Below are positions 1,600 to 23,981 of a stretch of DNA of 25,668 nucleotides, one piece after another. A program made the translations under genes and the position numbers. The first letter of the stretch is position 1. The number at the start of each line of letters is the position of its first letter. Below the pieces are notes generated by a model. That model saw nothing but the letters and a program-made list of their open reading frames with translations. It ran no database searches and was not told the DNA's origin. This DNA is from Promethearchaeota archaeon (lineage in GTDB: Archaea > Asgardarchaeota > Lokiarchaeia > Sigyniarchaeales > SOKP01): positions 1 through 25,668 of the forward strand of contig JAGXNO010000047.1 of the NCBI GenBank assembly GCA_019894975.1, written 5' to 3'.

Positions 1600-2730
1600 T
1601 CATTGAACTTCAAAACTTTCAGCTCTTTTTGACTTTCTTTCACTGAAACTAATAATCTGTGCTAACATTTTTGATTTTTCTACAGAACCATTTAAATCGT
1701 TTGGTTCAATGATATACCCCTTATTTTGAGCAAGATTATATATTTTTTCTCCTGTTTTGGTTCTTACCATAACAGTGGTATATCCGGTTTGAGAACCCAA
1801 TCCTCCGAAAGAAATATCCGAAAAATAATTTGAAAAGTTTTCACACACTCTACATGCATGTCTCATAATATCCTTAAGATCGGAGAATTCTATCTTAAGA
1901 GGATTATCATTAGTTTTGAGTTTTATGATCAAATCTTCTTTTATATTTATTTTTTCAATATCATTAAAAGAAAATTTGAATCTCTCTTCTATTCTTGCTC
2001 GAGCAATGTTATCAAATTTAAAATTCTCATAACAAAATAAACCTAAAGTATACTTTACAATATGAGCCGGAATAATATTGAGCTCTTGCATTTTTCTAAT
2101 AGAGTGGATCTGACAAGGAACTCCAACTACAGCAACTTTCATGGAATCAGAGTATTTAATCTTTTTTAATTCAGAAATCGTTGAAACGAAAGTATTATAG
2201 TTCCCTAATTCCGGAACAGGGCCTTTCAAGTCATAATAAGTCCCTGCTGCTTCAAGAATTTCTTCTTTACTTGTAGCAAAAAAAGGTACCCTCTGAAATG
2301 AATTAATTCTTTTTGAAATAAGTGCTCCATTTATTAAATTATCTTCTAAAAGTGCTATTAAAATAGCGGTAACAACACCTCCATCAGTAGCAACTTCCCT
2401 AATTCTAGGATCTTTCGCTTGAGCTGTTACAATCTTTAACCAATTTCCAATGGGTGCTCTAAAATCATATTTCTTATTTAGTTCTTTATCCAATTCAAAT
2501 GTTTCAGGGCAAATTAAGTAGCATATTCCACAATGCAAACAATTATCTTTATTCGCATAATGAGGAGGTCCATCCTCAGTCATTTCAATTGCCCCTATTT
2601 CTGCCGCGCTACAAAAACTTACACAACCCCCGCATTCTCCACATATATCTTTTTCATGGACATCTTTAATGAGGTCTTCAAAAGATTTAGGTTTGACTTC
2701 GCTTCTTTTTGCAGTAGGTTCTTCGGCCAT
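1600..2730 (-). CDS. Coenzyme F420 hydrogenase/dehydrogenase beta-subunit family protein with N-terminal 2x[4Fe-4S] ferredoxin (FpoF/FqoF-like architecture)
   Basis: CGECGGCVSFC and CLHCGICYLICP ferredoxin motifs, then FrhB motifs DGGVVTA, VGVPCQI, LGLFC, CRVC, SDISFGGLGS, GYTTVMVRT. Confidence 0.92.
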   Translation of the reverse strand: MAEEPTAKRSEVKPKSFEDLIKDVHEKDICGECGGCVSFCSAAEIGAIEMTEDGPPHYANKDNCLHCGICYLICPETFELDKELNKKYDFRAPIGNWLKIVTAQAKDPRIREVATDGGVVTAILIALLEDNLINGALISKRINSFQRVPFFATSKEEILEAAGTYYDLKGPVPELGNYNTFVSTISELKKIKYSDSMKVAVVGVPCQIHSIRKMQELNIIPAHIVKYTLGLFCYENFKFDNIARARIEERFKFSFNDIEKINIKEDLIIKLKTNDNPLKIEFSDLKDIMRHACRVCENFSNYFSDISFGGLGSQTGYTTVMVRTKTGEKIYNLAQNKGYIIEPNDLNGSVEKSKMLAQIISFSERKSKRAESFEVQ

Positions 2731-3237
2731 AAAAATATACCTTACTCATTTTTTCAAATGTTAGTTAATAATTCTATATTGTTTTCTAATATTATAATTG
2801 TTATCATAAAAAACAGATAAAATGACTTAAATCACATATTTCTTACCATAATAGTATAGGATTCTGAATTTAATTTCCTAATTTAATAATAATATCAAAA
2901 GAATTTTACCCTTTAAAAAAGATTACCTTTAAAGCATTTTGAACCTATATCCAAAAGAGACCAATAAAAAAGTTAAAGAATGTATAAAATTGTACATTAT
3001 TCGTAATTTTTTTCAGAAATCGTAAATAAAAATGTCAAATAATTTAAGATAATTACATAAATTCGAAATTCTGAAATATCTTTAAATATTAAGCTCGATC
3101 TTAATTATATTGTTGAAAAAAATTATTGTAATCCTTAATAATATAAGAAATAGCTTATTAAAAAGATCAATATTTATAAAATAGGAAAAATTGAATCTAA
3201 AACATAATACCTTAACAAGCTTATGGTTTGAAAAATT
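2731..3237. promoter_or_regulatory. Divergent AT-rich promoter region shared by the FrhB-like gene and the hdr-met operon
   Basis: About 500 nt non-coding between divergent starts. TATA-like TTTAAATA at 3081-3088 (preceded by purine-rich GAAATATC) and TTTATAAA at 3173-3180. Confidence 0.6.
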
Positions 3238-3744
3238 ATGCAAATGATTGATTTTGAATTTCGAAATGATCTTATAAAGGAAGATTTCTCTCTAAATTAT
3301 TGTTATCAATGTGGAACGTGTTCTAGCACCTGTCCTGTGGCTCTTATCACTGAAGGTGAATTTAATCCTAGAAAAATTATCGAACAATCACTTTTAGGGC
3401 TTAAAGACCTCTTATTAAAGGATCAAAATCCGAATGTATGGTTATGTAGTACATGTCAGATGTGTGTAGAGGAATGCCCCCAAAATGTTTTATTAACTGA
3501 AATTTTTGAGAAAATTAAAAATAAAATAATATCCCAAGGAGAATCTTACCCTGAGAGTTTTAAAGTGCAAGCTAAGAGTGTAATAGAAAATGGGGTGGCA
3601 ATTCCACTAACACCTCCAATCATTCGTAGAAGAGATCAATTGGGACTTCCAAAAGTAGAATCTGCTAGTACGGATGAGATAAAGAAATTACTAGATGCCA
3701 CTGGGTTTGAAAAAAAAATAAAAATATTAAAGGAGGAGAAATAA
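3238..3744 (+). CDS. hdrC: Heterodisulfide reductase subunit C
   Basis: CYQCGTCSSTCP ... FNPRKII ... WLCSTCQMCVEECP, C-terminal RRDQLGLP; directly upstream of hdrB. Confidence 0.95.
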   Translation: MQMIDFEFRNDLIKEDFSLNYCYQCGTCSSTCPVALITEGEFNPRKIIEQSLLGLKDLLLKDQNPNVWLCSTCQMCVEECPQNVLLTEIFEKIKNKIISQGESYPESFKVQAKSVIENGVAIPLTPPIIRRRDQLGLPKVESASTDEIKKLLDATGFEKKIKILKEEK

Positions 3745-3745
3745 A

Positions 3746-4621
3746 ATGACATATAATTTCTTCCTCGGCTGTGTAATTCCTGGAAGGTTGCCATTTTTAG
3801 AAGCCTCAGCTCGAAAAACTTTTGAAAAAATTGGTGTAAAAGTGGGGGATCAGGCTAAATGTTCATGTTGTCCAGATCCTACTGGTGTTGCTCAAATGGA
3901 TCATGAAACTTTCTTAGCTTTAGGTGCAAGAAATCTATGCCTTTATGAAGAAAGTAACAATCATATTTTGAGTCTTTGTTCTGGATGCACTGAATCTCTC
4001 AAAACAGTTAAACATATTTTAGATAATGATGATGAGATGAAAAAAGAAATTAATCTAAAGCTCAAGGTAATAGGAAAATCTTATGAAGGTACTAGTGATA
4101 TAAAACATTTTGCTGAAGTATTATATGAAAATATTGAAAAAATAAAAGGAATGGTTAAAAATCCATTAAAAAATTTAAAAATTGCAGGTCATCCTGGATG
4201 CCATTATTTACGTCCCTCTGAAATAATAAATTGGGATGATCCCCTCAATCCTAAAACACTAGATGAATTAATTGAAGCAATTGGAGCAGATCCCGTTGAT
4301 TATGAAATGAAGAACGATTGTTGTGGGAATCCATTAGAAAAATCTGATAAGGATATATCATTAAGCATGTTAGAGGCCAAACTAAGAAGCATGAAAGAAT
4401 CGGGGACAGATTGTATCGTTTGTGTTTGCCCTGCCTGTTATCAACAATTTGATTTCAATCAGAGAGAAATAAATAAAATTCATAATACAGAGTATAATTT
4501 TCCTGTTTTTTATATAACCGAATTAATTGCCTTAGCTCTAGGATTAAATAAAGAGGATCTCGGATTAAACTTCCATAGGATTAAGGTGAATGATATTTTA
4601 CAGAATGTAATAAAGGTATAG
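3746..4621 (+). CDS. hdrB: Heterodisulfide reductase subunit B
   Basis: Two CCG-type domains: FLGC / CCPDP / LCSGC and HPGCH / CCGNP / VCPACYQQFD; SD-like AGGAGG upstream. Confidence 0.95.
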   Translation: MTYNFFLGCVIPGRLPFLEASARKTFEKIGVKVGDQAKCSCCPDPTGVAQMDHETFLALGARNLCLYEESNNHILSLCSGCTESLKTVKHILDNDDEMKKEINLKLKVIGKSYEGTSDIKHFAEVLYENIEKIKGMVKNPLKNLKIAGHPGCHYLRPSEIINWDDPLNPKTLDELIEAIGADPVDYEMKNDCCGNPLEKSDKDISLSMLEAKLRSMKESGTDCIVCVCPACYQQFDFNQREINKIHNTEYNFPVFYITELIALALGLNKEDLGLNFHRIKVNDILQNVIKV

Positions 4622-4634
4622 GAGACGATGTATT

Positions 4635-5930
4635 TTGGGTCAAAATATAAAAAAAGTTATGATTATTGGTGGAGGTATTGCAGGAATTCAAGCCTCCTTA
4701 GATTTAGCTGAAAGAGGTATAGAAGTAGAACTAATTGAAAAAAATTCCTGTATTGGTGGTCGGATGGCTCAACTAGATAAAACATTTCCTACTAATGACT
4801 GTTCTATATGTATTTTAGCTCCTAAGCTCTCAGAATGTTCTCGGCATCCAAATATTACTTTACACACACTCTCAGAAGTAAAAAAATTGTCAGGTCAACC
4901 AGGAAATTTCAAAGTGAAAATTTACAAGAAAGCAAGATATGTAAAAGAAGATGAATGCATTAATTGTGGACAATGTGTAGAAAAATGCCCAATGAGAGTA
5001 GACGACGAATTTGATATGAAATTAAGGAAGCGTAGAGCAATCTATATTGATTATGTTCAAGGAGTGCCCTCAATAATGAGGATTGATAAAGAAAACTGTT
5101 TACTTTTCACCAAAGATTCTTGCAGGATCTGTGAAAAAGTATGTGAGAGAGAAGCAATTGATTTCGACCAAAAAGATGAAGAATTTGAATTAAACGTAGG
5201 ATCAATTATCGTAGCGACGGGATATGATATATTTGATCCTAGCTCACTTACAACTTTAGGATATGGACGATATCCCAATGTTGTTACTGCTTTAGAATTT
5301 GAAAGACTGATTTGTGCTTCTGGACCTTTGGGTGGACATCTAGAGAGACCCTCAGACAAAAAGGACCCTAAAAAACTTGCATTTGTTAATTGTGTAGGTT
5401 CAAGGGATGTAAAAAACAATCCATTTTGTTCATCTTGTTGCTGTATGTATACCACTAAAGAAGCAATGATTGCTTACGAGCATGATAATGAAATTGAGAC
5501 TTCAATATTTTATATCGATCTAAGAGCGGCTGGAAAAGGTTTTCGAGAATATATTCAGAGAGGAAGAGATGAATATTCAATTAAGTACATAAAAGGAAAG
5601 GTAGCAAAGATATTAGAAGATGATCAAAAAAATCCATTAATCGTATATGAGGATATTGATACTTTGCAAGTTAAACAAATTAAATTTGACCTTGTAATTT
5701 TAGCTACTACTATGATACCTAAAAAAGGTGCTGAAGAACTAGCCCAAACTTTAGGAATCAAAATGAATGATTTTAACTTTTACAAAGCAAATAGCTACCA
5801 ACCACAAAAATCCTCTAAAGAAGGAATTTTTCTCTGTGGTGCTTGTAGAGAACCTATGGATATTCCAAATTCTGTAATTGATGCAAGTGGGGCAGCTGCT
5901 AAAGCTGCTGAAATAATAATGAGGGGATGA
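4635..5930 (+). CDS. hdrA: HdrA-like flavoprotein, 'half A' (FAD domain + inserted 2x[4Fe-4S]; lacks N-terminal domain and C-terminal ferredoxin); TTG start
   Basis: [55 protein letters not shown]...CSSCCCMYTTK; AGGAG 10 nt before the TTG. Confidence 0.92.
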   Translation: MGQNIKKVMIIGGGIAGIQASLDLAERGIEVELIEKNSCIGGRMAQLDKTFPTNDCSICILAPKLSECSRHPNITLHTLSEVKKLSGQPGNFKVKIYKKARYVKEDECINCGQCVEKCPMRVDDEFDMKLRKRRAIYIDYVQGVPSIMRIDKENCLLFTKDSCRICEKVCEREAIDFDQKDEEFELNVGSIIVATGYDIFDPSSLTTLGYGRYPNVVTALEFERLICASGPLGGHLERPSDKKDPKKLAFVNCVGSRDVKNNPFCSSCCCMYTTKEAMIAYEHDNEIETSIFYIDLRAAGKGFREYIQRGRDEYSIKYIKGKVAKILEDDQKNPLIVYEDIDTLQVKQIKFDLVILATTMIPKKGAEELAQTLGIKMNDFNFYKANSYQPQKSSKEGIFLCGACREPMDIPNSVIDASGAAAKAAEIIMRG

Positions 5931-5935
5931 AAAAG

Positions 5936-7603
5936 ATGTCTGAAGAAGAAACTAGAATTGGTGTTTTTATTTGTCATTGTGGTACTAATATCGGTGGTGT
6001 TTTGGATATTCCTGAGTTAGAGAAATATGCCAAAACTTTACCAAATGTCGTATATAGCGGCGCTAACTTATATACATGTTCGGAAGTTGGATTAACTGAA
6101 ATCAGAGATAATATTAAGGAACATAATTTAAATCGAGTCATTGTAGCATCATGTTCTCCTCGAACTCATGAACCGTTATTTAGATCAACTTGTCAAGAAG
6201 TAGGTTTAAATCCCTATTTATTTGAAATGGTAAACATTAGAGACCAAGATTCTTGGGTTCATATGAAAGAACCTGAAAAAGGCACCGAAAAGGCTAAAGA
6301 TCTTATTAGAATGGGTGTTTATAAGGCTGCTTTATTAGAATCATTAGAAAAAATAAAGGTTGGAGTGACGCCTTCTGCTATTGTAATCGGTGGAGGGATT
6401 GCAGGGATGAATGCTGCATTAAATTTAGCAAATCAAAATTTTAAAGTAAGTTTAATAGAAAAGGAATCGGAGTTAGGTGGATTGCTCCGACAACTAAATA
6501 AAGTTTATCCTACCAATGAAGATGCTTCAAATTTATTAGAAACAAGAGAATTGGTAGAAAATCACAAAAAAATAGATATTTATAAGTCAGCTCTAATAGA
6601 AAAAATTGAAGGATACGTAGGGAACTTTAATGTAATTGTTCTCCAAGATAAAAAAAGAAATGAAATCAAAGTGGGTGCTATAATAGTTGCTACAGGTGCG
6701 AATGCTTTATCTCCAGAAGGATATTACAATTATAATGGAAAAACCATCATTAGTCAATTAGAGTTAGAGGGATTATTAAAAGATAATACAATTAATGCAC
6801 ACAATATTACGATGATCCAATGCGTTGGTTGCAGAAATGAGGAAAGAAAATATTGTTCAAATATATGTTGTATGACTGCCCTTAAAAATGCAATCCTGAT
6901 TAAAGAGCAAAAACCAGACACTAATATTACTATAATTTTTAGAGATATCCAAACTCAAGGTGTTACTTATGAAGAATATTATAGAAGAGCAAGAGAAATG
7001 GGAATAATATTTATAAAATATTTGCCAGAGAAACCTCCAATTATTAAGAAAAATCATATTGAAGTTTATAATGATTTTTTGAATCAAGTTATTGGATTTC
7101 CCTATGATCTTGTGGTATTATCTATGCCACTTATTGCTAATGAAGATTCAGAGCAATTAGCAAAATTATTGAAAGTTCCATTAGAGAAAAATGGTTTCTT
7201 TTTAGAAGCTCATGTGAAGTTAAGACCTGTAGATTTTGCTACAGATGGTGTATTTGTATGTGGCTCAGCTCATTGGCCCGCAGATATTGCAGAAAGTATA
7301 TCACAATCAAATGCAGCAGCTTCGAGAGCTAGTACGATAATCTCAAAAGAAATGATAGAAGTAGAAGGTTCTACCGCCGAAGTTAATGAAAATTTATGTG
7401 TGGGATGTGAAGCTTGTATTAAGATCTGTCCCTATAGTGCAATATCTAAAGATGAGGATACCGATACTGTTATAGTTAATAAAGTTGTTTGTAAAGGATG
7501 TGGAGTATGTGGTGCTAGTTGTCCGCACAATGCAATTATTATACACCACTTTACTAACGATCAGATACTAGCTGAAATTGCAACTTATGGAGGTGGGGAA
7601 TAA
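5936..7603 (+). CDS. hdrA: HdrA-like flavoprotein, 'half B' (N-terminal HdrA domain + FAD domain + C-terminal ferredoxin; lacks inserted ferredoxin)
   Basis: [86 protein letters not shown]. Start is either 5927 (ATGA overlap) or 5936 (GAGGGG 9 nt upstream, preferred). Confidence 0.92.
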   Translation: MSEEETRIGVFICHCGTNIGGVLDIPELEKYAKTLPNVVYSGANLYTCSEVGLTEIRDNIKEHNLNRVIVASCSPRTHEPLFRSTCQEVGLNPYLFEMVNIRDQDSWVHMKEPEKGTEKAKDLIRMGVYKAALLESLEKIKVGVTPSAIVIGGGIAGMNAALNLANQNFKVSLIEKESELGGLLRQLNKVYPTNEDASNLLETRELVENHKKIDIYKSALIEKIEGYVGNFNVIVLQDKKRNEIKVGAIIVATGANALSPEGYYNYNGKTIISQLELEGLLKDNTINAHNITMIQCVGCRNEERKYCSNICCMTALKNAILIKEQKPDTNITIIFRDIQTQGVTYEEYYRRAREMGIIFIKYLPEKPPIIKKNHIEVYNDFLNQVIGFPYDLVVLSMPLIANEDSEQLAKLLKVPLEKNGFFLEAHVKLRPVDFATDGVFVCGSAHWPADIAESISQSNAAASRASTIISKEMIEVEGSTAEVNENLCVGCEACIKICPYSAISKDEDTDTVIVNKVVCKGCGVCGASCPHNAIIIHHFTNDQILAEIATYGGGE

Positions 7604-8374
7604 ATGGTATTTGAACCAAAAATTTTAGGATTCTTATGTAATTGGTGCTCCTATGCAGGAGCAGACTTAGCAGGAACAAGTCGAATCCAGTATCCAACTA
7701 ATGTAAGAGTTATTCGTGTTATGTGTTCTGGAAGAGTTGATCCTGTATTTATAGCTGAAGCTTTCATGAATGGTATTGATGGAGTACTTATTTTAGGATG
7801 CCATTTAGGAGATTGTCATTATATTAGCGGTAATTATGAAGCAGAATTGAAAATGAAGATGTTAAGCAAGGCATTATCAACCATAGATTTTGCTGAACGA
7901 ATTCGCCTTGATTGGGTTTCTGCTGCTGAAGGAGCTAGATTTGCTCAAATAGTGGGTGATTTTACAGAACATATCCGCAAATTGGGACCTTCTCCCGTAA
8001 AAAATAAAAAAGTAAAAGACCTAATAATTGATAATCTTAATGCTGTTAAATTTACTTTAAGCGATAAAAGATTAAGAGCTTTAGTTGCGAGGCAAAGGGA
8101 GCTAACAACAGAGGGGAATGTATATGGGGAAATAATACCAACTGAAGAATTTGAGGAAATACTTGATAATGCTATTGAAAATGAGACAATTCGTCACAAA
8201 ATATTAGAAAAAATTAAAAAAGAAGGTAAATCCGTTCCTGATATTGCAAAGGAGATTGAAATAGAACCTTATAAGGTGTTACGACATATTGTGACTCTTC
8301 GAGCTCGAGGTTTGGTTGATGTTGACAAAATAAATGAAGAAATTCCCACTTTTATTTCTATTAAAGAGGTTTAG
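7604..8374 (+). CDS. mvhD: MvhD [2Fe-2S] subunit with ~120-aa C-terminal extension ending in a winged HTH-like domain
   Basis: [41 protein letters not shown]; tail [42 protein letters not shown]; SD GGAGGTGG. Confidence 0.93.
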
Positions 8375-8376
8375 AT

Positions 8377-11300
8377 ATGGAAAAAATTGGTTCAGTATTA
8401 GTAGTAGGTGGAGGAATAGCCGGCATTCAAGCTTCAATGGACTTAGCAGATTCAGGATATAAAGTTTATTTAGCTGAATCATCCATGAGTATAGGAGGAG
8501 TGATGTCTCAATTAGACAAAACTTTTCCTACAAATGATTGTTCTATATGCATACTTGCTCCAAAATTGGTTGCGGCAGGACGTCATGAAAATATCACACT
8601 TCTGATTAATACGAATTTAGAAAAAATTGATGGTGTTCCTGGTAACTTCACAGTTGAGTTGAAACAAACCTCTTTGTTATTAGATCAAGAAAACTGTACA
8701 GGTTGTGGCGTTTGTGCTCAAGAATGCCCTGTAGAAGCAATTGACTTCTTTAATGAGGGATTATCAAATAGAGCCGCAATATCAGTAAAGTTTCCACAAG
8801 CAGTTCCATTAGTTTTTTCAATTGATCAAGATCTCTGTATAGGTTGTGGATTTTGTAAAGGAGTGTGTAAAGCTAAGGCAATAGATTACACTCTTGAAGA
8901 TAAATTTACCTCTCTGAATGTTGGAGCTATTGTTTTAGCCCTTGGGTTTGATGAATACGATCCTAGCCTTACCCAACATTATGGATATAGCAAATATTTG
9001 AATGTGGTTACTAGTATTGAATTTGAACGTGTATTAAGCGCAAGTGGACCACATTCGGGACTTATTCTTAGACCATCTGATGGAATAATTCCTAAAAAAA
9101 TAGCATTCCTACAGTGTGTTGGATCAAGAGATAAAAAACATGGGGCAGAGTATTGTTCTTCAGTTTGTTGTATGTACACTGCTAAAGAAGCAGTAATTGC
9201 GAAAGAACATATGGATATTGTTAACCCAACGATCTTCTCAATGGATATAAGGGCTGTTGGCAAAGATTTCGATAAATACATTGAGCGTGCACAAGATGAA
9301 TATGGGATAAGATATGTTAGAAGCAGAATATCAGATATCAAGGAATTATCAAACACAAAAGACTTAGTTCTTCATTATGAAAATGAAGATGGAAAGGTAG
9401 TTAGTGAAATCTTTAATCTGGTTGTTTTAGCGGTAGGTGCTTTGCCAAATCGTAGCACAGCAGAAATAGCAAAGAAACTAAACATTGAATTGAATGAGTA
9501 TGACTTCTGCAAGACAAAACCATTTTCACCGGTTGAGACATCTAGAGAAGGAATATATGTATGTGGCATGATTTCAGAACCCAAAGACATTCCAGAAACA
9601 GTTGTAGAAGCGAGTGCTGCCGCAGGTGCTGTAAATCTCCTTTTATCTGAAGCTAGAAACACACTAGTTACTGAAAAAGAACTACCAAAAGAGATCGATG
9701 TAAGTGGAGAACCTCCTCGTATAGGCGTTTTTATATGTCATTGTGGTATTAACATTGGAGGGGTGGTAGACGTTCCTGAAGTTGTTGAATATGCAAGTAA
9801 ATTACCTGATGTAATCTATGCAGAAAGAAATTTGTATACATGCTCCGCCGATACCCAAACGAATATTAAAGAACAAATAAAAGAACATAACTTAAATAGG
9901 GTAATTGTTGCATCATGTACACCAAGAACTCATGAGCCCTTATTCCAAGCAACCATTAGGGAAGCAGGATTAAATAAGTATCTATTCGATTTAGCAAATA
10001 TTCGAGATCAATGTTCATGGGTACATATGCATGAACCAGAGAAAGCAACAGAGAAAGCAAAAGATTTAGTGAGAATGGCTATTGCCAAAGCTCGTAAATT
10101 AGTCCCTCTTCAAGAACAGCAAATAGAGGTTATTCATGAAGGAATGGTAATTGGAGGGGGCATTGCAGGTATGACAGCAGCATTGAATCTTGCAAATCAA
10201 GGATTTGAAGTATTCCTCGTGGAGAAAAGTGAAAAATTAGGAGGATTTTCTAATAATATATATCAAACGATAGAAAATCATGATGTACAAGAATTTCTAA
10301 AAGATTTAATAGATAAAGTTACTAATCATAAGCTAATTAATGTATTTCTTTATGCTAAAATTAACTCAATTGGCGGATATGTTTGTAACTTCACAACTAA
10401 CATCTCCTTTGGTGAAGATAAACAAGTTAAAGAATTTCAGCACGGCATTATTATTGTTGCTACTGGAGCTCACGAATATCAGCCAAAAGAGGGTGAATTT
10501 CTTTTTGATAAAGATGGTAGAGTCATATTACAATCAGATTTAGAGAAAATTCTGTTTACAGAAGAAAATAAAATTAATGAATTGAAATCAATAGTAATGA
10601 TACAGTGCGTAGGCTCAAGAAACGATGAAAACCCTTATTGCAGTAGGATGTGTTGCAGTGAAGCTATTAAGAACGCATTAAAAGCCAAAGAAATTAATCC
10701 GAAACTTAACATCACTGTTTTATATAGGGATATTAGAACCTACGGGTTTAAGGAAAAGTATTACAATTTAGCGAGAGAAAAAGGAGTTATTTTTCTAAGA
10801 TTTAAAGATGATAAACCTCCAGAAATTAAATTAGAAAATGGAAAATTAAATGTTTATGTTAATAAACCAGATATTGGGAATATCAAGATAAATGCTGACT
10901 TAGTTGCCCTAAGCGCAGGAATAGTCGCCGATGGTATAGCAAACGAAAATTTAGCAAAAATGTTGAAAGTTCCTACAAATGATGATAATTTCTTCTTAGA
11001 AGCTCATGTAAAGCTTCGACCTTCTGATTTTGCAACTGATGGTATCTTTTTATGTGGTACTGCTCGGGGAACAGCAACAATTAGAGAAAGTATTGCACAG
11101 GCAATGTCAGCTGCCTCCAGAGCCACCACAATATTATCTAAAGATATTTACATAACTGAAGGTGTTATTTCCAAGGTTGATCCTGCCTTGTGTATTGGAT
11201 GTAATAGATGTGCTGAAGTTTGTAGTTATGGGGCAGTTGGCGTAAAATATGAAGATGGTTTAATGATTTCTGAAGTTAATCCTTTACTTTGTAAAGGTTG

Positions 11301-11838
11301 TGGGGATTGTGCTGCTGAATGTCCCGCAGAAGCTATAACAATGAGTCATTTTGGACGTATTCAAATTGAACCAATGATAACCGAAGCTGCTAAAGTCACA
11401 GACACAGATGGGCAGCCCCGAATTGTTGCGTTTCTCTGTAACTGGTGTAGCTACGCAGGTGCCGATCTCGCTGGTGTGAGTCGCTATCAATACCCCCCGA
11501 ATATAAGAACGATAAGAGTTATGTGCTCAGGGGGCATTCCTAAGAGTTTTATATTACAAGCATTTTTAGAAGGTGCTGATGGCGTCTTTGTAGGGGGTTG
11601 TCATCTAGGTGATTGTCACTATATAGCGGGAAATCAAGATACTTTAAGAAGAACTGATGAGATTGTAAAAATTATAGGATCGCTAGGAATAAATCCAGAA
11701 AGATTCATGCGAAAGTGGGTTTCTGCAAGTGAAGGAAAAATCTTTGCGGAAACCATTACAGAATTTACCGATAGGTTAAAAAAACTCGGTCCTATTGAAA
11801 ATGATTATAAAAAAGAAGAAGTTCTAATAACAAAATAA
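8377..11838 (+). CDS. hdrA: Large HdrA(half A)-HdrA(half B)-MvhD fusion protein
   Basis: aa ~1-425 match half A ([17 protein letters not shown], inserted ferredoxin). aa ~448-1005 match half B ([22 protein letters not shown]-terminal ferredoxin). aa ~1013-1140 are MvhD ([24 protein letters not shown]). Confidence 0.94.
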
Positions 11839-11875
11839 AATAAATTCAAGTTCATAAAATTAGGAGTTTGGTAAT

Positions 11876-12574
11876 ATGATAATAACTAAACAGAAGGATA
11901 TTGAAGAAATATATGATATGATCAAACCATATTCAAAAATCTTGGTAACTGGGTGTGACGGTTGCTGTCAACCTCCACGCTCAATAAACGAAGCAAAATT
12001 ACTTGCACAAATGCTCGAATTGAAGGCAAGGAGTGAAGGAAAAGAACTACAATGGAAGGCTATCACTGTGTTAAGGCAGTGTGATGATAGGATTGCTGCT
12101 ACAACCCTTAGACCCTTTAGTGAAGAATATGATGCCATAGTCTCATTAGCGTGCGGTCTAGGAGTTGGCATGTTAAATAGAATTGTCCCCTCAATTCTTA
12201 CTTTTCCGGCACAAGATAGTATGTTTGGCGGAGCAGAAAATAACGGTGAAAATTATTTTGTAGAATATTGCGAGACATGCGGTGAATGTTTATTAGGAGT
12301 TACAGGAGGCATATGCCCTATGGCCGGATGTGCAAAAAACTTAAGCAATGGTCCCTGTGGCGGACAAGTTGAAGGAAAATGTGAGGTAGGAGGATATATA
12401 CATGAGTGCGCATGGGTAAAGATATTTACTCGCTTAAAACAATTTAACAGACTCGATCTATTTACAGTCTACAGACCTCCTCGAAACTACAATCTATGGT
12501 CAAGCCCAAGATTTATGCATATATACGAACCTGCTTCAAATGAGGAAGAACAAAAAAAGGAGGAGAAAACATAA
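11876..12574 (+). CDS. metV: Methylenetetrahydrofolate reductase Fe-S/Zn subunit MetV (MTHFR_C domain)
   Basis: MIITKQK start, GCDGC, RQCD, LACGLGV, CETCGECLL..TGGICP..GCAKNLSNGPCGG..GKCEV..CAW; adjacent to metF. Confidence 0.92.
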   Translation: MIITKQKDIEEIYDMIKPYSKILVTGCDGCCQPPRSINEAKLLAQMLELKARSEGKELQWKAITVLRQCDDRIAATTLRPFSEEYDAIVSLACGLGVGMLNRIVPSILTFPAQDSMFGGAENNGENYFVEYCETCGECLLGVTGGICPMAGCAKNLSNGPCGGQVEGKCEVGGYIHECAWVKIFTRLKQFNRLDLFTVYRPPRNYNLWSSPRFMHIYEPASNEEEQKKEEKT

Positions 12575-13507
12575 ATGACAAACAGACCAGCTTTTAGTAA
12601 TTTAGTAAAAACGATCAAAGAAGGAAAATTCGTATTCACGGGGGAATTAGAACCAGAAAAAGATTTTGATTTAACCCATGTTCTACATTCTGCCGAAGAA
12701 ATGAAAAACACTGGAAAAATAATTGCAGCGAATGTTACTGATGGCCCTCAAGGAGATGCATATACATGCTCCATGGTACCTTGTTACTTAGTTCAAGAAA
12801 AAGTTGGATTAGAAGCGGTTTGGCAAATGACTGTCAGAGATAGAAATCGAATTGCTTTATTTGGGGATATACTGGGTGGAGCGATATTGGGTCTAAAAAA
12901 CTTACTTGCTTTAACAGGAGATCATTCTGCTCTTGGAGATCATAAAGGTGCAAGAGCTGTGTATGATTTAGATTCCACTCAATTGATTGCATTAGTCTCA
13001 AAAATGGTTGATGAAGGAGTTGACTTAGAAGGAAATGAAATAAGAGGGGGAAAACCTCAAATAAATGTAGGTTGTGCCGCAAATCCAAATTCAAATCCAA
13101 GAGAACCAGAAATCTTAAAAGTCGGTAGAAAGGTAGAAGTAGGGGCAGATTTTGTTCAAACTCAAACTTCATTTGATATTGATGATGCTAAGGAATTCTT
13201 AAAAGAACTGGAAAGGTATAATATTCCTGTTTTACTAGGCTTATTCCCAATAAAAAACTATGGAATTGCGTGGTATTTTAATGAATATATACCTGGTGTT
13301 TCGGTTCCTCAAGATTTTCTTGATGCCCTAAAGAAGACTAAAAAAATAAAAGATAAAGCAGAAAAATATGCTGCAATAGATAAAATTAATCTAGACTTTT
13401 TCGAGCCATTTATCAAAGAAATCAAGAAAACTACGAAAGCCGCAGGAATTCATTGCATGGCAGTACATTATGAAAGATTATTCGACCCACTCCTGAAGGA
13501 TTTCTAA
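12575..13507 (+). CDS. metF: 5,10-methylenetetrahydrofolate reductase catalytic subunit
   Basis: FTGELEP, NVTDGP, QMTVRDRNRIAL, LALTGDH, VYDLDS, GADFVQTQ, PGVSVP, GIHCM; SD AAGGAGG. Confidence 0.93.
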   Translation: MTNRPAFSNLVKTIKEGKFVFTGELEPEKDFDLTHVLHSAEEMKNTGKIIAANVTDGPQGDAYTCSMVPCYLVQEKVGLEAVWQMTVRDRNRIALFGDILGGAILGLKNLLALTGDHSALGDHKGARAVYDLDSTQLIALVSKMVDEGVDLEGNEIRGGKPQINVGCAANPNSNPREPEILKVGRKVEVGADFVQTQTSFDIDDAKEFLKELERYNIPVLLGLFPIKNYGIAWYFNEYIPGVSVPQDFLDALKKTKKIKDKAEKYAAIDKINLDFFEPFIKEIKKTTKAAGIHCMAVHYERLFDPLLKDF

Positions 13508-13594
13508 AAAGAAGATTTTAGATTGGAAAAACACATTAGTATTTAATTTTACAATTTTTTACAATTTGTTAGTAAAAGGAAAAGGAGGTTAAAA

Positions 13595-14047
13595 ATGAAA
13601 AATTTGGATAGTAAAGATAAAAGAATTCTTGAAATGCTTCTTGAGGATTCAAGAAGACCATACCATGAAATTGCAGCAGATAAAGACGTAAATTTATCTG
13701 AATCTACTGTCAGAAAAAGAGTAATTAAATTACAGGAAGGGGGGATAATAGAAAAATTCACCATTAAGATCTGCCGTGAAGATGAGAGATGTATATATGC
13801 TTTCCTTACGCTTATACCTAAAAATGAATCGGAAATAAAAGATTTATTAAGAGAGACCGTTTTACTTCCACAATGTGAAGAAGTATTTAAACTAGATGGT
13901 AGATGTGGTATATTAATAAAAGTAAATGTGCCTGATACCAATGAATTAGATGCAATTTTGGAGATGTTTCGTTCCCGAACTGATATCGAAACTGTTGAAA
14001 GGATATGTGTAGTGTTAAAACCCATTAAAACAGTTACCCAAGCCTAA
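13595..14047 (+). CDS. Lrp/AsnC family transcriptional regulator
   Basis: LDSKDKRILEMLLEDSRRPYHEIA...LSESTVRKRVIKLQEGGIIEKFTI HTH followed by a RAM-like domain; SD AAGGAGGT. Confidence 0.93.
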   Translation: MKNLDSKDKRILEMLLEDSRRPYHEIAADKDVNLSESTVRKRVIKLQEGGIIEKFTIKICREDERCIYAFLTLIPKNESEIKDLLRETVLLPQCEEVFKLDGRCGILIKVNVPDTNELDAILEMFRSRTDIETVERICVVLKPIKTVTQA

Positions 14048-17269: not shown

Positions 17270-17920
17270 CTATTCACTAAAATAGTTAAAAATTACCTGC
17301 AAGATTATCTGCTTAAAACATTTCACGATATTTACTCCTTGTATTGCTTCTGCGTCATATACCACCTTAGAACCGTCCGGATAGGTATCAAGCAAAGGCA
17401 GTCCTAAAGCTATCTTAAATTTACTCAATTTAATCGCGTTTTCCAAATCTCTTTTGTTCAACTGAACAATGTATGGGATTTTCTTAGGAGAGGCAAAACT
17501 TACCAGTTCCCGAAAGCTTCTTTTATTTTGTTCTAATTTTTCAGGATTCGAATCCCCAACGAATACGATCCCGTCAGCACCGTCGAGTACATATTCTCGT
17601 GTTGATAGGAAGCGTTCTTGTCCTGTACAGGTCACCACATGGGCTATAATATTGAATTTAAGATCCTTTATTGCAAACTTAAACAAAAGATAGAGAGAGT
17701 CTTCCCATAAGGTTCTTCCTTCTGTGGTTTCGATGGAATATCCGTTCGATAATTTTAGGAGATCGAATTTTTCCTTCAAACGAAAAAAGTTGGTTGTCTT
17801 TCCACTTTCCCCAGGTCCCCAGTAGACAATTTTAAACTGAAGCATATTTTCAGCGTCGTTGAAATCGAACTCACCGCTGATTTCTAACTGACTTTCCCCT
17901 TCTTTATTGTGTAATTCCAC
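17270..17920 (-). CDS. MglA-family small GTPase (GTG start)
   Basis: KIVYWGPGESGKTTN, EGRTLWED (intrinsic Arg finger region), TCTGQERF, VLDGADGIVFVGDS, QLNKRDL, EAIQG; SD GGTGGTGA upstream. Confidence 0.92.
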   Translation of the reverse strand: MELHNKEGESQLEISGEFDFNDAENMLQFKIVYWGPGESGKTTNFFRLKEKFDLLKLSNGYSIETTEGRTLWEDSLYLLFKFAIKDLKFNIIAHVVTCTGQERFLSTREYVLDGADGIVFVGDSNPEKLEQNKRSFRELVSFASPKKIPYIVQLNKRDLENAIKLSKFKIALGLPLLDTYPDGSKVVYDAEAIQGVNIVKCFKQIILQVIFNYFSE

Positions 17921-18551: not shown

Positions 18552-19181
18552 TTAATTAAGAATTCTTAGGCTTTTAATAATTCTTAAGAAAAAATAATTG
18601 TCTTGAGTAATTCTGCTCTTCTCTTGTCTAATATTTTCTTTAGGAAGAAAAATGGTTCCTGCTGATTCTCTCTTTGGATAACAAAGAACCCCATCTCTTT
18701 TAACAAATGATTTAACATCTTTGGTTTGTTGAATAACTATAAAAATGCAAGTGCGGTTAATCCCTTTTTCATCCGTTAAATTCACATCAACTATTTCAAA
18801 AACTTTGTTGTATTTTCGAATATTTGTCCGAAGAATCTCATGTAATTCTTTTTTTTTATTCTCAACATCCTCAAGTCCTACAATCTTCCTAGGTAAAATA
18901 TCTGTTATTCCGATCATCAGTACTCCACCTCTTTCGTTGGCAAAAGAGCAAACGTCCTTGCATACCTCTAGCTTGCTTTGCTTAATATTTCTCCTATTTG
19001 GAGTCCACCAATTATAAGTTCTTTTAAAATCAAAATAAACTCTCTCCTTCTTATTTGACACATTTTTAACAAACTTCTCCCAGAAGACATTACTCTGAAT
19101 AACTGATAGCCATCTTGCGGTTTCTTCTTTAGAATATTGAACTTCTTTTTTGTGCAATCTGAAATATTTTAAAGTCTTCAT
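18552..19181 (-). CDS. Schlafen/AlbA_2 domain protein; reading frame open a further 52 codons upstream (to 19337)
   Basis: ERVYFDFK...EVCKDVCSFANERGGVLMIGITD..RKIVGL...YPKR is the AlbA_2 signature. Confidence 0.85.
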   Translation of the reverse strand: MKTLKYFRLHKKEVQYSKEETARWLSVIQSNVFWEKFVKNVSNKKERVYFDFKRTYNWWTPNRRNIKQSKLEVCKDVCSFANERGGVLMIGITDILPRKIVGLEDVENKKKELHEILRTNIRKYNKVFEIVDVNLTDEKGINRTCIFIVIQQTKDVKSFVKRDGVLCYPKRESAGTIFLPKENIRQEKSRITQDNYFFLRIIKSLRILN

Positions 19182-22889: not shown

Positions 22890-23981
22890 TTAGAATTTGA
22901 GTATGGCTTTCTGAACCCGTTTAGGGTTTTGTGGCAACCTGAGAAAGTAAGCCCTACACTGTTTGTAATTATACACTACCTTTTCAAGATTATTTTCCAC
23001 TCGTTCTTTATTGAGATGGTGGTCATTACATAATAAATCCATTACACGAGGTTTTAAGGGAAAGTTCCAATAAAAATCTTGATCTGAGGTATTTACATCT
23101 GGAAATAAAAATATTCTCCTAATTTTTTTAATAAGTTCAGGAGTAAGTTTATTAAAATCATATTTTTTTTTCTCTTGGATAAGAACTTTTTCTATCTGTT
23201 TGTATTTTTGTATATAGGTTAAAGCTTTTTTAGGCCCAATTCCTTTTATCCCTGAAAAATAATCAGTTCCGATCATTAACCCCATATCGACCAGTTGAAA
23301 TTGACTGATTCCTAATCTCTTTAGGTTTTTTCGCAAGTTAATACGAAAAGGAGTTATCTTGGTGTAACTCCATTTTCCCTGCACTTTCCTCCGAAGCGAT
23401 TTAGAAAGATTCTGTATTATTCGAGGGCAACCGAACAACAATGAATCAAAATCTTGGGAATTGGAATAACGAGCAATTTTTTGTCTCACTAAATAGGCAC
23501 ATTGCGATTCTGCCGAGGCAGGAGAGTCTATGCAGGGTACTCCTAACGCACTAAGCAGTTCTTTCGATTCTTTGATTATGTTTTGCCATAGATATTCTTT
23601 ACTTAAGGCTATTTGTCGCGCACTCTCTTTGTCTCCACTTGAAATTGCCTGCTCATACAATTGCTGAGTAAACCGAAAATCATTGAGTCGATCCTTAGTA
23701 ATCAATTTTTTTAGTTCAGAATCCCTTCCATCAAAGCAAAAAATGGGAAATATTCTTTTGGTATAATATAATTTCACCCGATATAATAGACCATAGAGAT
23801 GTGAAATCGGTCTTTGGGTTCTGTCTAATATCAAACCGGCATAATTTCCATCGTGATCCTTCCGTGCGAAATTAAACAGCCCCATAATAATATTAGGAGC
23901 GTCGACAGCAATAATCTTACCCGATAAATCACTGAAGCCAATAACTTCCCGTTCAATGATATTTTGAAGTTTAACTCCCAT
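22890..23981 (-). CDS. fen: Flap endonuclease-1 family nuclease, divergent
   Basis: MGV, GKIIAVDA, ISHLYGLLYR, FCFDG, AESQCAY, SQDFDSLLFG, IGTDY..GIKGIGPKKA (H3TH), degenerate C-terminal PIP box QKAILKF. Confidence 0.92.
   Translation of the reverse strand: MGVKLQNIIEREVIGFSDLSGKIIAVDAPNIIMGLFNFARKDHDGNYAGLILDRTQRPISHLYGLLYRVKLYYTKRIFPIFCFDGRDSELKKLITKDRLNDFRFTQQLYEQAISSGDKESARQIALSKEYLWQNIIKESKELLSALGVPCIDSPASAESQCAYLVRQKIARYSNSQDFDSLLFGCPRIIQNLSKSLRRKVQGKWSYTKITPFRINLRKNLKRLGISQFQLVDMGLMIGTDYFSGIKGIGPKKALTYIQKYKQIEKVLIQEKKKYDFNKLTPELIKKIRRIFLFPDVNTSDQDFYWNFPLKPRVMDLLCNDHHLNKERVENNLEKVVYNYKQCRAYFLRLPQNPKRVQKAILKF

Follow-up and report, generated by a model that had tools for sequence, protein, structure and literature searches.

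Which compound donates electrons to a methylene-pterin reductase of the MetVF type that is encoded together with heterodisulfide reductase (Hdr) genes, and which second acceptor takes part? For the Hdr-type MetVF reductases both have been unsolved since 2014, which limits understanding of energy conservation at the step from methylene to methyl in acetogens and in Wood-Ljungdahl archaea. The question is raised by contig JAGXNO010000047.1 (assembly GCA_019894975.1) of a Promethearchaeota archaeon from the class Lokiarchaeia, whose complete 25,668 nucleotides are called the window here. It forms contig C117 in an assembly of 3.93 Mb and 175 contigs (95% complete, 8.6% contamination, GC 30-35%). 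Its Ras/Arf-type GTPase genes and the Promethearchaeota/Lokiarchaeota origin of the proteins closest to its own agree in placing it with the Loki-type Asgard archaea. It had previously been read from its letters alone, and this sequence-only reading described a cluster of hdr, mvhD and metVF genes with a divergent FrhB-like gene, interpreted as an F420-linked bifurcating reductase. The frhB-like gene, hdrC, hdrB, two hdrA genes, mvhD, an hdrA-mvhD fusion, metV and metF were all recovered where that reading had placed them, by open reading frame (ORF) analysis and by Pfam and NCBIfam matches. The elements of the locus are as follows.

1600-2730, minus strand: FrhB-like F420-reductase module (PF04432 129 bits, PF04422 65 bits)
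2731-2907, no strand: frhB-proximal spacer, conserved among frhB-bearing loci
2908-3237, plus strand: conserved 330-nt region 5' of hdrC, a promoter, operator or leader (pairwise identity)
3238-3744, plus strand: HdrC (TIGR03290 99.5 bits; two CxxCxxCxxxC motifs)
3746-4621, plus strand: HdrB (TIGR03288 300 bits; two complete CCG motifs, the non-cubane cluster sites)
4635-5930, plus strand: HdrA half 'a' (matches positions 139-563 of the HdrA2 model)
5927-7603, plus strand: HdrA half 'b' (NCBIfam; alignment to half 'a')
7604-8374, plus strand: MvhD with a C-terminal tail resembling a helix-turn-helix (HTH) domain (FlpD 176 bits; HTH_20 E 4e-4)
8377-11838, plus strand: HdrA-HdrA-MvhD fusion of 1153 aa (alignment to 5ODC_A)
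11876-12574, plus strand: MetV, the Fe-S/zinc subunit of MetVF (PF12225 99.6 bits)
12575-13507, plus strand: MetF, flavin-dependent methylene-pterin reductase (PF02219 103.7 bits)
13595-14047, plus strand: AsnC/Lrp-type regulator (HTH_AsnC-type E 2e-11)

From hdrC through metF the co-oriented genes are separated by 1, 13, -4, 0, 2, 37 and 0 bases, and an AT-rich spacer of 507 bases lies between frhB and hdrC. Directly 3' of metF a co-oriented ORF of 150-190 aa is found in nearly all related loci; since the AsnC/Lrp gene is conserved at this place, the unit reaches 14047. With metVF adjacent to and co-oriented with hdrC, hdrB, hdrA and mvhD, the earlier description as an archaeal Hdr-MvhD-MetVF cluster of the Moorella kind holds, and so does its remark on missing partners: no hydrogenase, FdhA or Flx gene is among the window ORFs giving a family match. 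The locus probably represents in archaea what the 'fourth type' reductase, HdrCBA-MvhD-MetVF, is in Moorella and Sporomusa, working along the general lines set out further below. Our main finding concerns the inlet of this system. The comparison of sequences and gene orders makes it likely, with somewhat more confidence than the assignment just given, that FrhB is a true, facultative partner of Hdr-MetVF, and an FrhB-associated Hdr cassette appears to have taken the place of a simpler cassette before MetVF, FrhB having arrived with it.

To describe the cassette, the HdrA genes were aligned to the solved HdrA 5ODC_A and to one another. Half 'a' (4635-5930; in the fusion, residues 1-440) keeps the TrxR/FAD domain, the NDCSIC motif with Cys194/Cys197 and the inserted two-cluster ferredoxin domain, and has neither the N-terminal cluster domain nor the C-terminal ferredoxin domain. 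Half 'b' (5927-7603; in the fusion, residues 441-1010) has its TrxR/FAD domain between an N-terminal cluster domain and a C-terminal ferredoxin domain, and has neither Cys194/Cys197 nor the inserted ferredoxin domain. In the fusion, residues 7-370 correspond to 146-510 of 5ODC_A, 445-623 to 2-180 and 859-1001 to 504-646, and residues 1013-1142 form an MvhD domain. The equivalents of E356 and K409, which serve as a signature of bifurcation (PMC9430772, PMC12054007), are retained in all four flavin domains (4/4). By its domain content the window encodes two asymmetric HdrA pseudo-dimers, one split and one fused, each with its own MvhD. Complementary halves of this kind have been described for the tandem or 'type II' HdrA of anaerobic methanotrophic archaea (ANME) and noted for Moorella (PMC9012536, PMC12054007). 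A simple duplication was considered for the two separate hdrA genes and rejected, as the halves are complementary in their domains and in Cys197. The window has no symmetric, homodimer-type HdrA with all four domains, the domains being split over the complementary halves, and in no HdrA of the window did Pfam or NCBIfam give a match to a Fer4_20/GltD-type NAD(P)H insertion.

In HdrB the cysteine pattern 9/41/42/78/81 and 152/192/193/228/231 makes up both CCG motifs, and the two motifs of HdrC are of the [4Fe-4S] type. The MvhD encoded at 7604-8374 carries a winged-helix-like C-terminal extension of about 120 aa (residues about 135-256) that is conserved in length and present in 37/37 aligned homologues, both from this cluster type and from the 11-gene operon described below. 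MvhD proteins of similar length also occur in a Methanosarcinales-labelled metagenome-assembled genome (MAG; L098) and in a Thermodesulfobacteriota MAG (L173).

We then compared the synteny of about 75 related loci. Of the 151 genomes of the class that were sampled, 138 have a MetV orthologue; identity is at least 65% in more than 100 of the 127 genomes sampled from the family (among them G000), and among the matches listed the MetV homologues are Promethearchaeota proteins throughout. The site lies between genes for phosphoenolpyruvate carboxykinase (PEPCK) and a small GTPase at one end and the gene of the AsnC regulator at the other end. Between these flanks four kinds of cassette precede MetVF. 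In the simple form (about 30 loci) the order is tandem HdrA-MvhD, HdrC, HdrB, MetV, MetF, with no FrhB; a minimal version (G121, G010 and G134, loci L024, L052 and L079) is reduced to tandem HdrA-MvhD and MetVF. The form of the window is a double cassette in the order divergent FrhB where present, HdrC, HdrB, HdrAa, HdrAb, MvhD-HTH, HdrAA-MvhD, MetV, MetF. A third form with a single pseudo-dimer (G075, L068) has HdrAa and a 703-aa HdrAb-MvhD fusion and keeps FrhB, HdrCB and MetVF; it is a deletion variant without MvhD-HTH and without the first half of the tandem gene. In the fourth, found in G148 (L031:9729-12473) and G069 (L083), all HdrA genes are replaced by one 915-aa fusion, in which a GltD/NfnB-like NAD(P)H flavoprotein is joined to a two-cluster ferredoxin domain and to MvhD. 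Common to all forms are only the MvhD domain, MetV, MetF and the regulator. The hdr-mvhD-metVF plan as such recurs in about 60 related Loki loci and in many bacterial loci.

For the frequency of frhB we counted those loci of the window's form whose upstream side is complete, 21 in all. Ten of these have FrhB and HdrCB, five, all from one genus, have FrhB without HdrCB, and six have HdrCB without FrhB. The gene thus sits at the same divergent position in 15 of the 21. That the FrhB-like gene is conserved beside the operon, as the sequence-only reading required, is therefore correct for the majority of loci with the window's form and does not extend to the simple form, where it is absent from about 30 loci. 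All six genomes (6/6) without the adjacent frhB keep the FrhB of the 11-gene operon (56-58% identity), which could act in trans where the adjacent gene is missing.

This 11-gene operon, which is conserved in relatives, encodes HdrC, HdrB, HdrAa, HdrAb, MvhD-HTH, tandem HdrA, MvhD, two Fe-S proteins, one of which is Fer4_22, an FNR-like FAD/NAD(P)/2Fe-2S protein and FrhB. Its members are L064 with L075, L065 with L073 and L059 with L074, and a copy cut by the contig end is present in the window's own genome (C10:1020-4952). It looks like a Flx-like NAD(P)H module and an F420 module set on the same double Hdr cassette. Among the paralogues of the window's FrhB, the product of its last gene comes nearest (55-63% identity, 71% in genus g3). 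Two further operons of the own genome, both on contig C109, combine FrhB, an HdrD-like protein and tandem HdrA-MvhD, or tandem HdrA-MvhD and FrhB. HdrC and HdrB of the window are closer to the 11-gene operon (200-470 bits) than to the simple MetVF clusters (only 77-237 bits). When 74 tandem HdrA sequences were placed in a maximum-likelihood tree, the simple clusters formed a separate clade (support 100) and the window's copy lay outside of it; the window's clade is sister to the C109 copy from the FrhB-HdrD-like-HdrAA-MvhD operon (support 96), and the copies of the 11-gene operon form a clade that branches close by, within an unresolved polytomy. The HdrC/HdrB scores and the tree together indicate that the window's Hdr cassette belongs to FrhB-associated lineages. 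A derivation of the window's Hdr genes in place, from a simple cluster, was rejected on the same two grounds.

The link between FrhB and Hdr proposed in the sequence-only reading hence recurs in paralogous operons, and it is also found in other lineages. In the Loki genome G033 (L038) a different FrhB paralogue abuts the head of a simple cluster. In a scan of species genomes with a Syntrophoarchaeum-type MetV as query (80 loci sampled), two loci (L097, L098), from two MAGs, contained FrhB: a MAG of Ca. Syntrophoarchaeum has metV-metF-hdrA-frhB, all co-oriented, and a MAG related to it has metV-metF-hdrA-frhB-hdrA-hdrA-mvhD-hdrA. Many bacterial loci of the scan follow the Moorella plan. The Thermodesulfobacteriota locus L173 encodes HdrA, a 265-aa MvhD-HTH-like protein, a 1010-aa tandem HdrA that matches the window's with 1206 bits, MvhD, MetV and MetF, and this double cassette before MetVF suggests a transfer between domains.

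The FrhB-like protein itself consists of an N-terminal 2x[4Fe-4S] ferredoxin domain followed by the FrhB_FdhB_N/_C core with its flavin site. Invariant in 27 homologues are Cys 30/33/36/40 and 64/67/70/74, which form CxxCxxCxxxC motifs, and the four core cysteines 206/233/293/296. Its closest solved relatives over the full length are 8RJA_E (FwdI; E 9e-43) and 8RIU_B (CODH zeta), with alignments beginning at residues 16-18 and about 28% identity. The AlphaFold model had a mean pLDDT of 66, with the Fe-S domain poorly modelled; a fold search with it ranked the same chains first (8RIU_B, TM score 0.71/0.73; 8RJA_E, 0.66/0.70), and the 14 best-ranked of the listed chains are all F420-handling subunits. 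By sequence and fold search the protein thus belongs to an F420-handling family, as had been supposed, with dockable F420-reductase modules as its nearest members. FwdI and CODH zeta of Ca. Ethanoperedens dock on Fe-S enzymes via their N-terminal domain and confer F420-reducing activity on Fwd and CODH (PMC11493965). A complex prediction of MvhD-HTH with the FrhB-like protein, run on their own alignments, scored at zero and is evidence neither way.

On which C1 carrier would such an enzyme act? The genome encodes CofE (276 bits), CofD (315 bits) and CofH (450 bits), next to which lies a likely CofG, so that F420 biosynthesis, which the sequence-only reading had asked for, is represented and the use of F420 is well supported. 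Mtd (348 bits), Mch (338 bits) and Ftr (183 bits) are grouped on contig C131. A true Mer was not found, the best genome match to TIGR03555 reaching 95 bits against a cut-off of 349, and Fhs gave no match in the genome. The folate genes folD and fhs had been named as genes to look for elsewhere in the genome: FolD is present, Fhs is the part that was not found. The presence of Ftr, Mch and Mtd without Mer and Fhs makes MetVF likelier as a Mer substitute than as part of a folate branch. We therefore do not retain the 'folate-type C1 branch' of the earlier reading; by gene content MetVF is more plausibly a substitute for Mer on a carrier of the tetrahydromethanopterin (H4MPT) type, a role also proposed for MetF of the ANME-1/Asgard type (PMC9012536). 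RFAP synthase was not found with TIGR00144 in this 95%-complete genome, which is not read as absence of methanopterin. A second, stand-alone MetV-MetF pair with about 44% identity lies on C147:3921-5522. In relatives it is usually 10-40 kb from the Hdr-linked pair, in genus g3 it is directly beside it and divergent (L037, L038), and some relatives, one single-contig genome included, carry the stand-alone pair only.

The general model, which is drawn by analogy with the solved Mvh-, Fdh- and Elp-Hdr complexes (PMC12350162) and with pull-downs from S. ovata (PMC9430772), can be put as follows. MetVF would convert methylene- to methyl-pterin, or the reverse, and stand in for Mer in an H4MPT-type Wood-Ljungdahl branch. 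MvhD would be the adaptor that joins MetVF to whichever flavoprotein cassette is present and links both MetVF and dehydrogenase modules with HdrA. The ferredoxin site would lie in the ferredoxin domain inserted into half 'a'; HdrBC would provide an optional disulfide-type site and FrhB an optional port to the F420/F420H2 pool. F420(H2), ferredoxin and the C1 couple would then be coupled by flavin-based bifurcation or confurcation, in which a disulfide may or may not take part. In Elp-Hdr, electrons from F420H2 reach HdrA via an FdhB-like subunit and an MvhD homologue (PMC12350162), and in the S. ovata pull-downs MetVF contacts HdrA, HdrB and MvhD (PMC9430772). The variant series at the Loki site (with and without FrhB, with and without HdrBC, one or two pseudo-dimers, an NAD(P)H-type module for HdrA) speaks for MvhD as the constant adaptor and makes F420 one concrete candidate for a partner. 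A stronger form of the proposal, in which the window encodes a natural bifurcating methylene-pterin reductase, either F420H2-dependent and ferredoxin-reducing or F420-reducing and ferredoxin-oxidising, with MvhD as universal adaptor for F420, NAD(P)H and bare tandem HdrA inlets, is held only tentatively and is a good deal more doubtful than the partnership of FrhB. If true, this would be the first Hdr-type MetVF reductase with both partners identified. The matter also bears on the models of Asgard energy metabolism used in scenarios of eukaryote origin.

A number of points weigh against an F420-linked, bifurcating Hdr-MetVF enzyme. The absence of frhB from 6 of 21 otherwise near-identical loci, besides the simple-form loci, means that FrhB is no obligatory subunit. 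It is also absent from 78 of the 80 loci around the Syntrophoarchaeum-type MetV, which are mostly from bacteria and Bathyarchaeia. The gene is divergent, and its own upstream segment is distinct from the hdrC-proximal region. F420 binding cannot be read from the FrhB-like sequence, and HCAR (5DQR), a member of the FrhB family, does not use F420. Physical contact is putative for any pair of the proteins. With FolD present and RFAP synthase not found the genes do not settle the C1 carrier, and because the stand-alone MetVF pair exists the Hdr-linked copy is not the sole candidate for a Mer substitute. The carrier matters for the energetics, because its potential limits the direction of coupling. 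The methylene-H4MPT/methyl-H4MPT couple lies near -320 mV and F420 near -340 to -360 mV, and with H4MPT standard conditions disfavour a bifurcation in which F420H2 reduces ferredoxin. The F420H2-driven bifurcation of the sequence-only reading is thus comfortable for a folate-like couple, with methylene-tetrahydrofolate/methyl-tetrahydrofolate at -200 mV (PMC5861303), and not for methylene-H4MPT at about -320 mV. With a folate-like couple two F420H2 could reduce both methylene-pterin and ferredoxin; with H4MPT, methyl oxidation together with the oxidation of reduced ferredoxin would feed F420.

Three other explanations have to be weighed against these data. FrhB may be a mere neighbour that serves another Hdr complex or acts as a general F420:ferredoxin oxidoreductase, Hdr-MetVF receiving its electrons from a group 3 [NiFe] hydrogenase via MvhD, from ferredoxin or from the modules of the paralogous operon. 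The patchy occurrence just described (only one simple cluster has an adjacent frhB) and the divergent orientation with a conserved upstream segment of its own would suit this, and the genome has other candidates to offer, with about 12 genes of the FrhB family, numerous HdrA paralogues and, adjacent to Hdr genes, two [NiFe] hydrogenase loci. However, wherever frhB is present its position is constant, the paralogue nearest to it is co-transcribed in one operon with the same Hdr cassette, two further and separate associations of FrhB with Hdr-MetVF clusters exist, and the six genomes without the adjacent gene keep the FrhB of the paralogous operon; we regard a mere neighbourhood as rather unlikely. 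Alternatively, one operon may encode two enzymes, an Elp-Hdr-like reductase of the heterodisulfide type that is linked to F420H2 and ferredoxin and has FrhB, HdrCB, split HdrA and MvhD-HTH as its subunits, and a separate tandem HdrA-MvhD-MetVF reductase. Such a separation is compatible with the minimal loci L024, L052 and L079, and with the distant family of G008, where an FrhB|HdrCB-HdrAa-HdrAb-MvhD-HdrAA block stands apart from the genome's own simple MetVF cluster. Against it, the HdrAa-HdrAb-MvhD/HTH-HdrAA-MvhD block recurs whole in the 11-gene operon and before MetVF in L173; five genomes with FrhB, both pseudo-dimers and MetVF have lost HdrCB, the disulfide site of the first enzyme; and G075 has merged both pseudo-dimers into one by deletion and kept the rest. 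Two enzymes appear slightly less probable still than an uninvolved FrhB.

The third explanation concerns the step itself. MetVF might act on tetrahydrofolate for biosynthesis, in the supply of methionine or methyl groups, as proposed for the MetF of Methanosarcinaceae. FolD without a detectable RFAP synthase would fit this, as would the second MetVF pair and the absence of the Hdr-linked copy from some relatives, the single-contig genome among them. On the other hand, the genome has no Fhs and no folate genes clustered with metVF, Mer is missing although Ftr, Mch and Mtd are present, a large module of the bifurcation type would be unusual for an anabolic enzyme, and MetV and MetF group with the ANME-1/Syntrophoarchaeum/Asgard type, for which a catabolic role has been proposed (PMC9012536). 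A biosynthetic role is accordingly the least probable of the three and in our view quite improbable.

Placing the preferred reading, an Hdr-MetVF system with FrhB as facultative partner, beside known systems shows what is shared and what differs. The clusters of Moorella thermoacetica and Sporomusa ovata (Mock 2014; PMC9430772; PMC5861303) likewise have co-oriented metVF with hdrC, hdrB, a two-flavin HdrA and mvhD. In contrast to the Moorella form, the window's HdrA has no GltD/NADH domain, and pseudo-dimer and MvhD each occur twice instead of once; an F420-type module stands beside the cluster, the pterin is likely of the H4MPT type, and HdrCB is dispensable in natural variants. The MetFV-HdrA-MvhD cluster noted in Ca. 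Syntrophoarchaeum (PMC9012536) shares the MetVF sequence group, the HdrA neighbour and a genome said to be without Mer. It also holds a gene of the FrhB family (L097, L098), in the order metV-metF-hdrA-frhB, with HdrA of conventional length and an FrhB distant from the window's (about 125 bits). In the Elp-Hdr and Fdh-Hdr complexes of methanogens (8RVU, 7BKB; PMC12350162) electrons from F420H2 pass to HdrA via an FrhB/FdhB flavoprotein and an MvhD-type [2Fe-2S] adaptor. Unlike these, the window has no bridging subunit like ElpA or FdhA (family searches found no molybdopterin-oxidoreductase-like gene in it), its FrhB-like protein brings its own N-terminal two-cluster domain, its HdrA is an asymmetric pseudo-dimer, and its acceptor module includes MetVF. 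The module is built like FwdI and CODH zeta of Ca. Ethanoperedens thermophilum (8RJA, 8RIU), with the same ferredoxin domain and FrhB core with [4Fe-4S] and flavin, and differs in that its partner would be Hdr/MvhD and not Fwd or CODH.

The tandem or 'type II' HdrA of ANME and of other archaea with a methane metabolism (PMC9012536, PMC12054007) shows the same complementarity of Cys197 and N-terminal domain, with E356/K409 in both flavin domains. In comparison to ANME HdrA3/4 the order of the halves is reversed in the window, where the first half has Cys197 and no N-terminal domain, and the window combines a split and a fused pair in one operon with MvhD fused to the tandem protein. With methanogen HdrABC it shares the two CCG motifs of HdrB and the two [4Fe-4S] motifs of HdrC, not the symmetric homodimer HdrA; the disulfide of the Asgard Hdr is treated as unknown in the literature (PMC11291895). 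Mer probably catalyses the same pathway step, possibly with the same cofactor pool, and belongs to a different protein family. MetF is a flavin enzyme and cannot take a hydride from F420 directly, so that an electron-transfer module is needed. FrhB-HdrA-MvhD clusters are known from ANME, Korarchaeia and Bathyarchaeia (PMC10667645, PMC7886697). In the literature searched we found no published description of a link of FrhB/F420 to an Hdr-MetVF cluster, Syntrophoarchaeum included, of the double-cassette form, or of a series of swappable inlets at one Asgard locus.

The sequence-only reading had also assumed that frhB and hdrC are transcribed from the same promoter region. The 330 nt 5' of hdrC have a mean pairwise identity of 77% among 14 loci of the same genus, with and without frhB, and the third codon positions of hdrC, at 66%, fall below this adjoining stretch. 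The 175 nt adjoining frhB have a mean pairwise identity of 74% in frhB-bearing loci and of 49-54% otherwise. These are two separate conserved segments, and a shared promoter is not demonstrated. The 330-nt region may be an operator array or a long leader, and the AsnC regulator or the HTH-like tail of MvhD are candidates for binding to it. Rfam gave no match in the whole window, this region included, and inverted repeats in the frhB-hdrC spacer were weak and AT-rich and were dropped. The one sediment metatranscriptome that was found is stored as contigs and belongs to a relative with 90-95% identity. Its contigs extend from hdrC into the tandem hdrA (about 3155-9870), take in parts of metV and span four gene junctions, although contigs cannot show transcripts. 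No contig lies on frhB; as the relative concerned may lack the gene, nothing is concluded about co-expression.

Elsewhere in the own genome an island dense in Hdr and FrhB genes was noticed (C109:17-37 kb and 76-99 kb, C110, C103). It has five tandem or fused HdrA genes, HdrD-like CCG proteins, four FrhB paralogues and one [NiFe] hydrogenase. Four HdrA genes are broken by a single in-frame TGA (C110:26481, C109:98041, C109:34655, C103:9528), which fits the published selenocysteine HdrA of Asgard archaea.

Within the window, the other ORFs with a family match encode PEPCK, two Ras/Arf-type GTPases, an AlbA_2/Schlafen protein, a major facilitator superfamily transporter, a FEN1-type nuclease and the AsnC regulator. 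A 158-aa ORF without family match (13549-14025, minus strand) is antisense to the AsnC gene, overlaps it almost fully and is probably not a gene. The genes at 687-1253, 17270-17920, 18552-19181 and 22890-23981, all on the minus strand, are the two GTPases, the AlbA_2/Schlafen-domain protein and the FEN1/XPG nuclease. The first of these GTPases together with PEPCK forms the left flank of the MetVF locus, which is conserved in most relatives.

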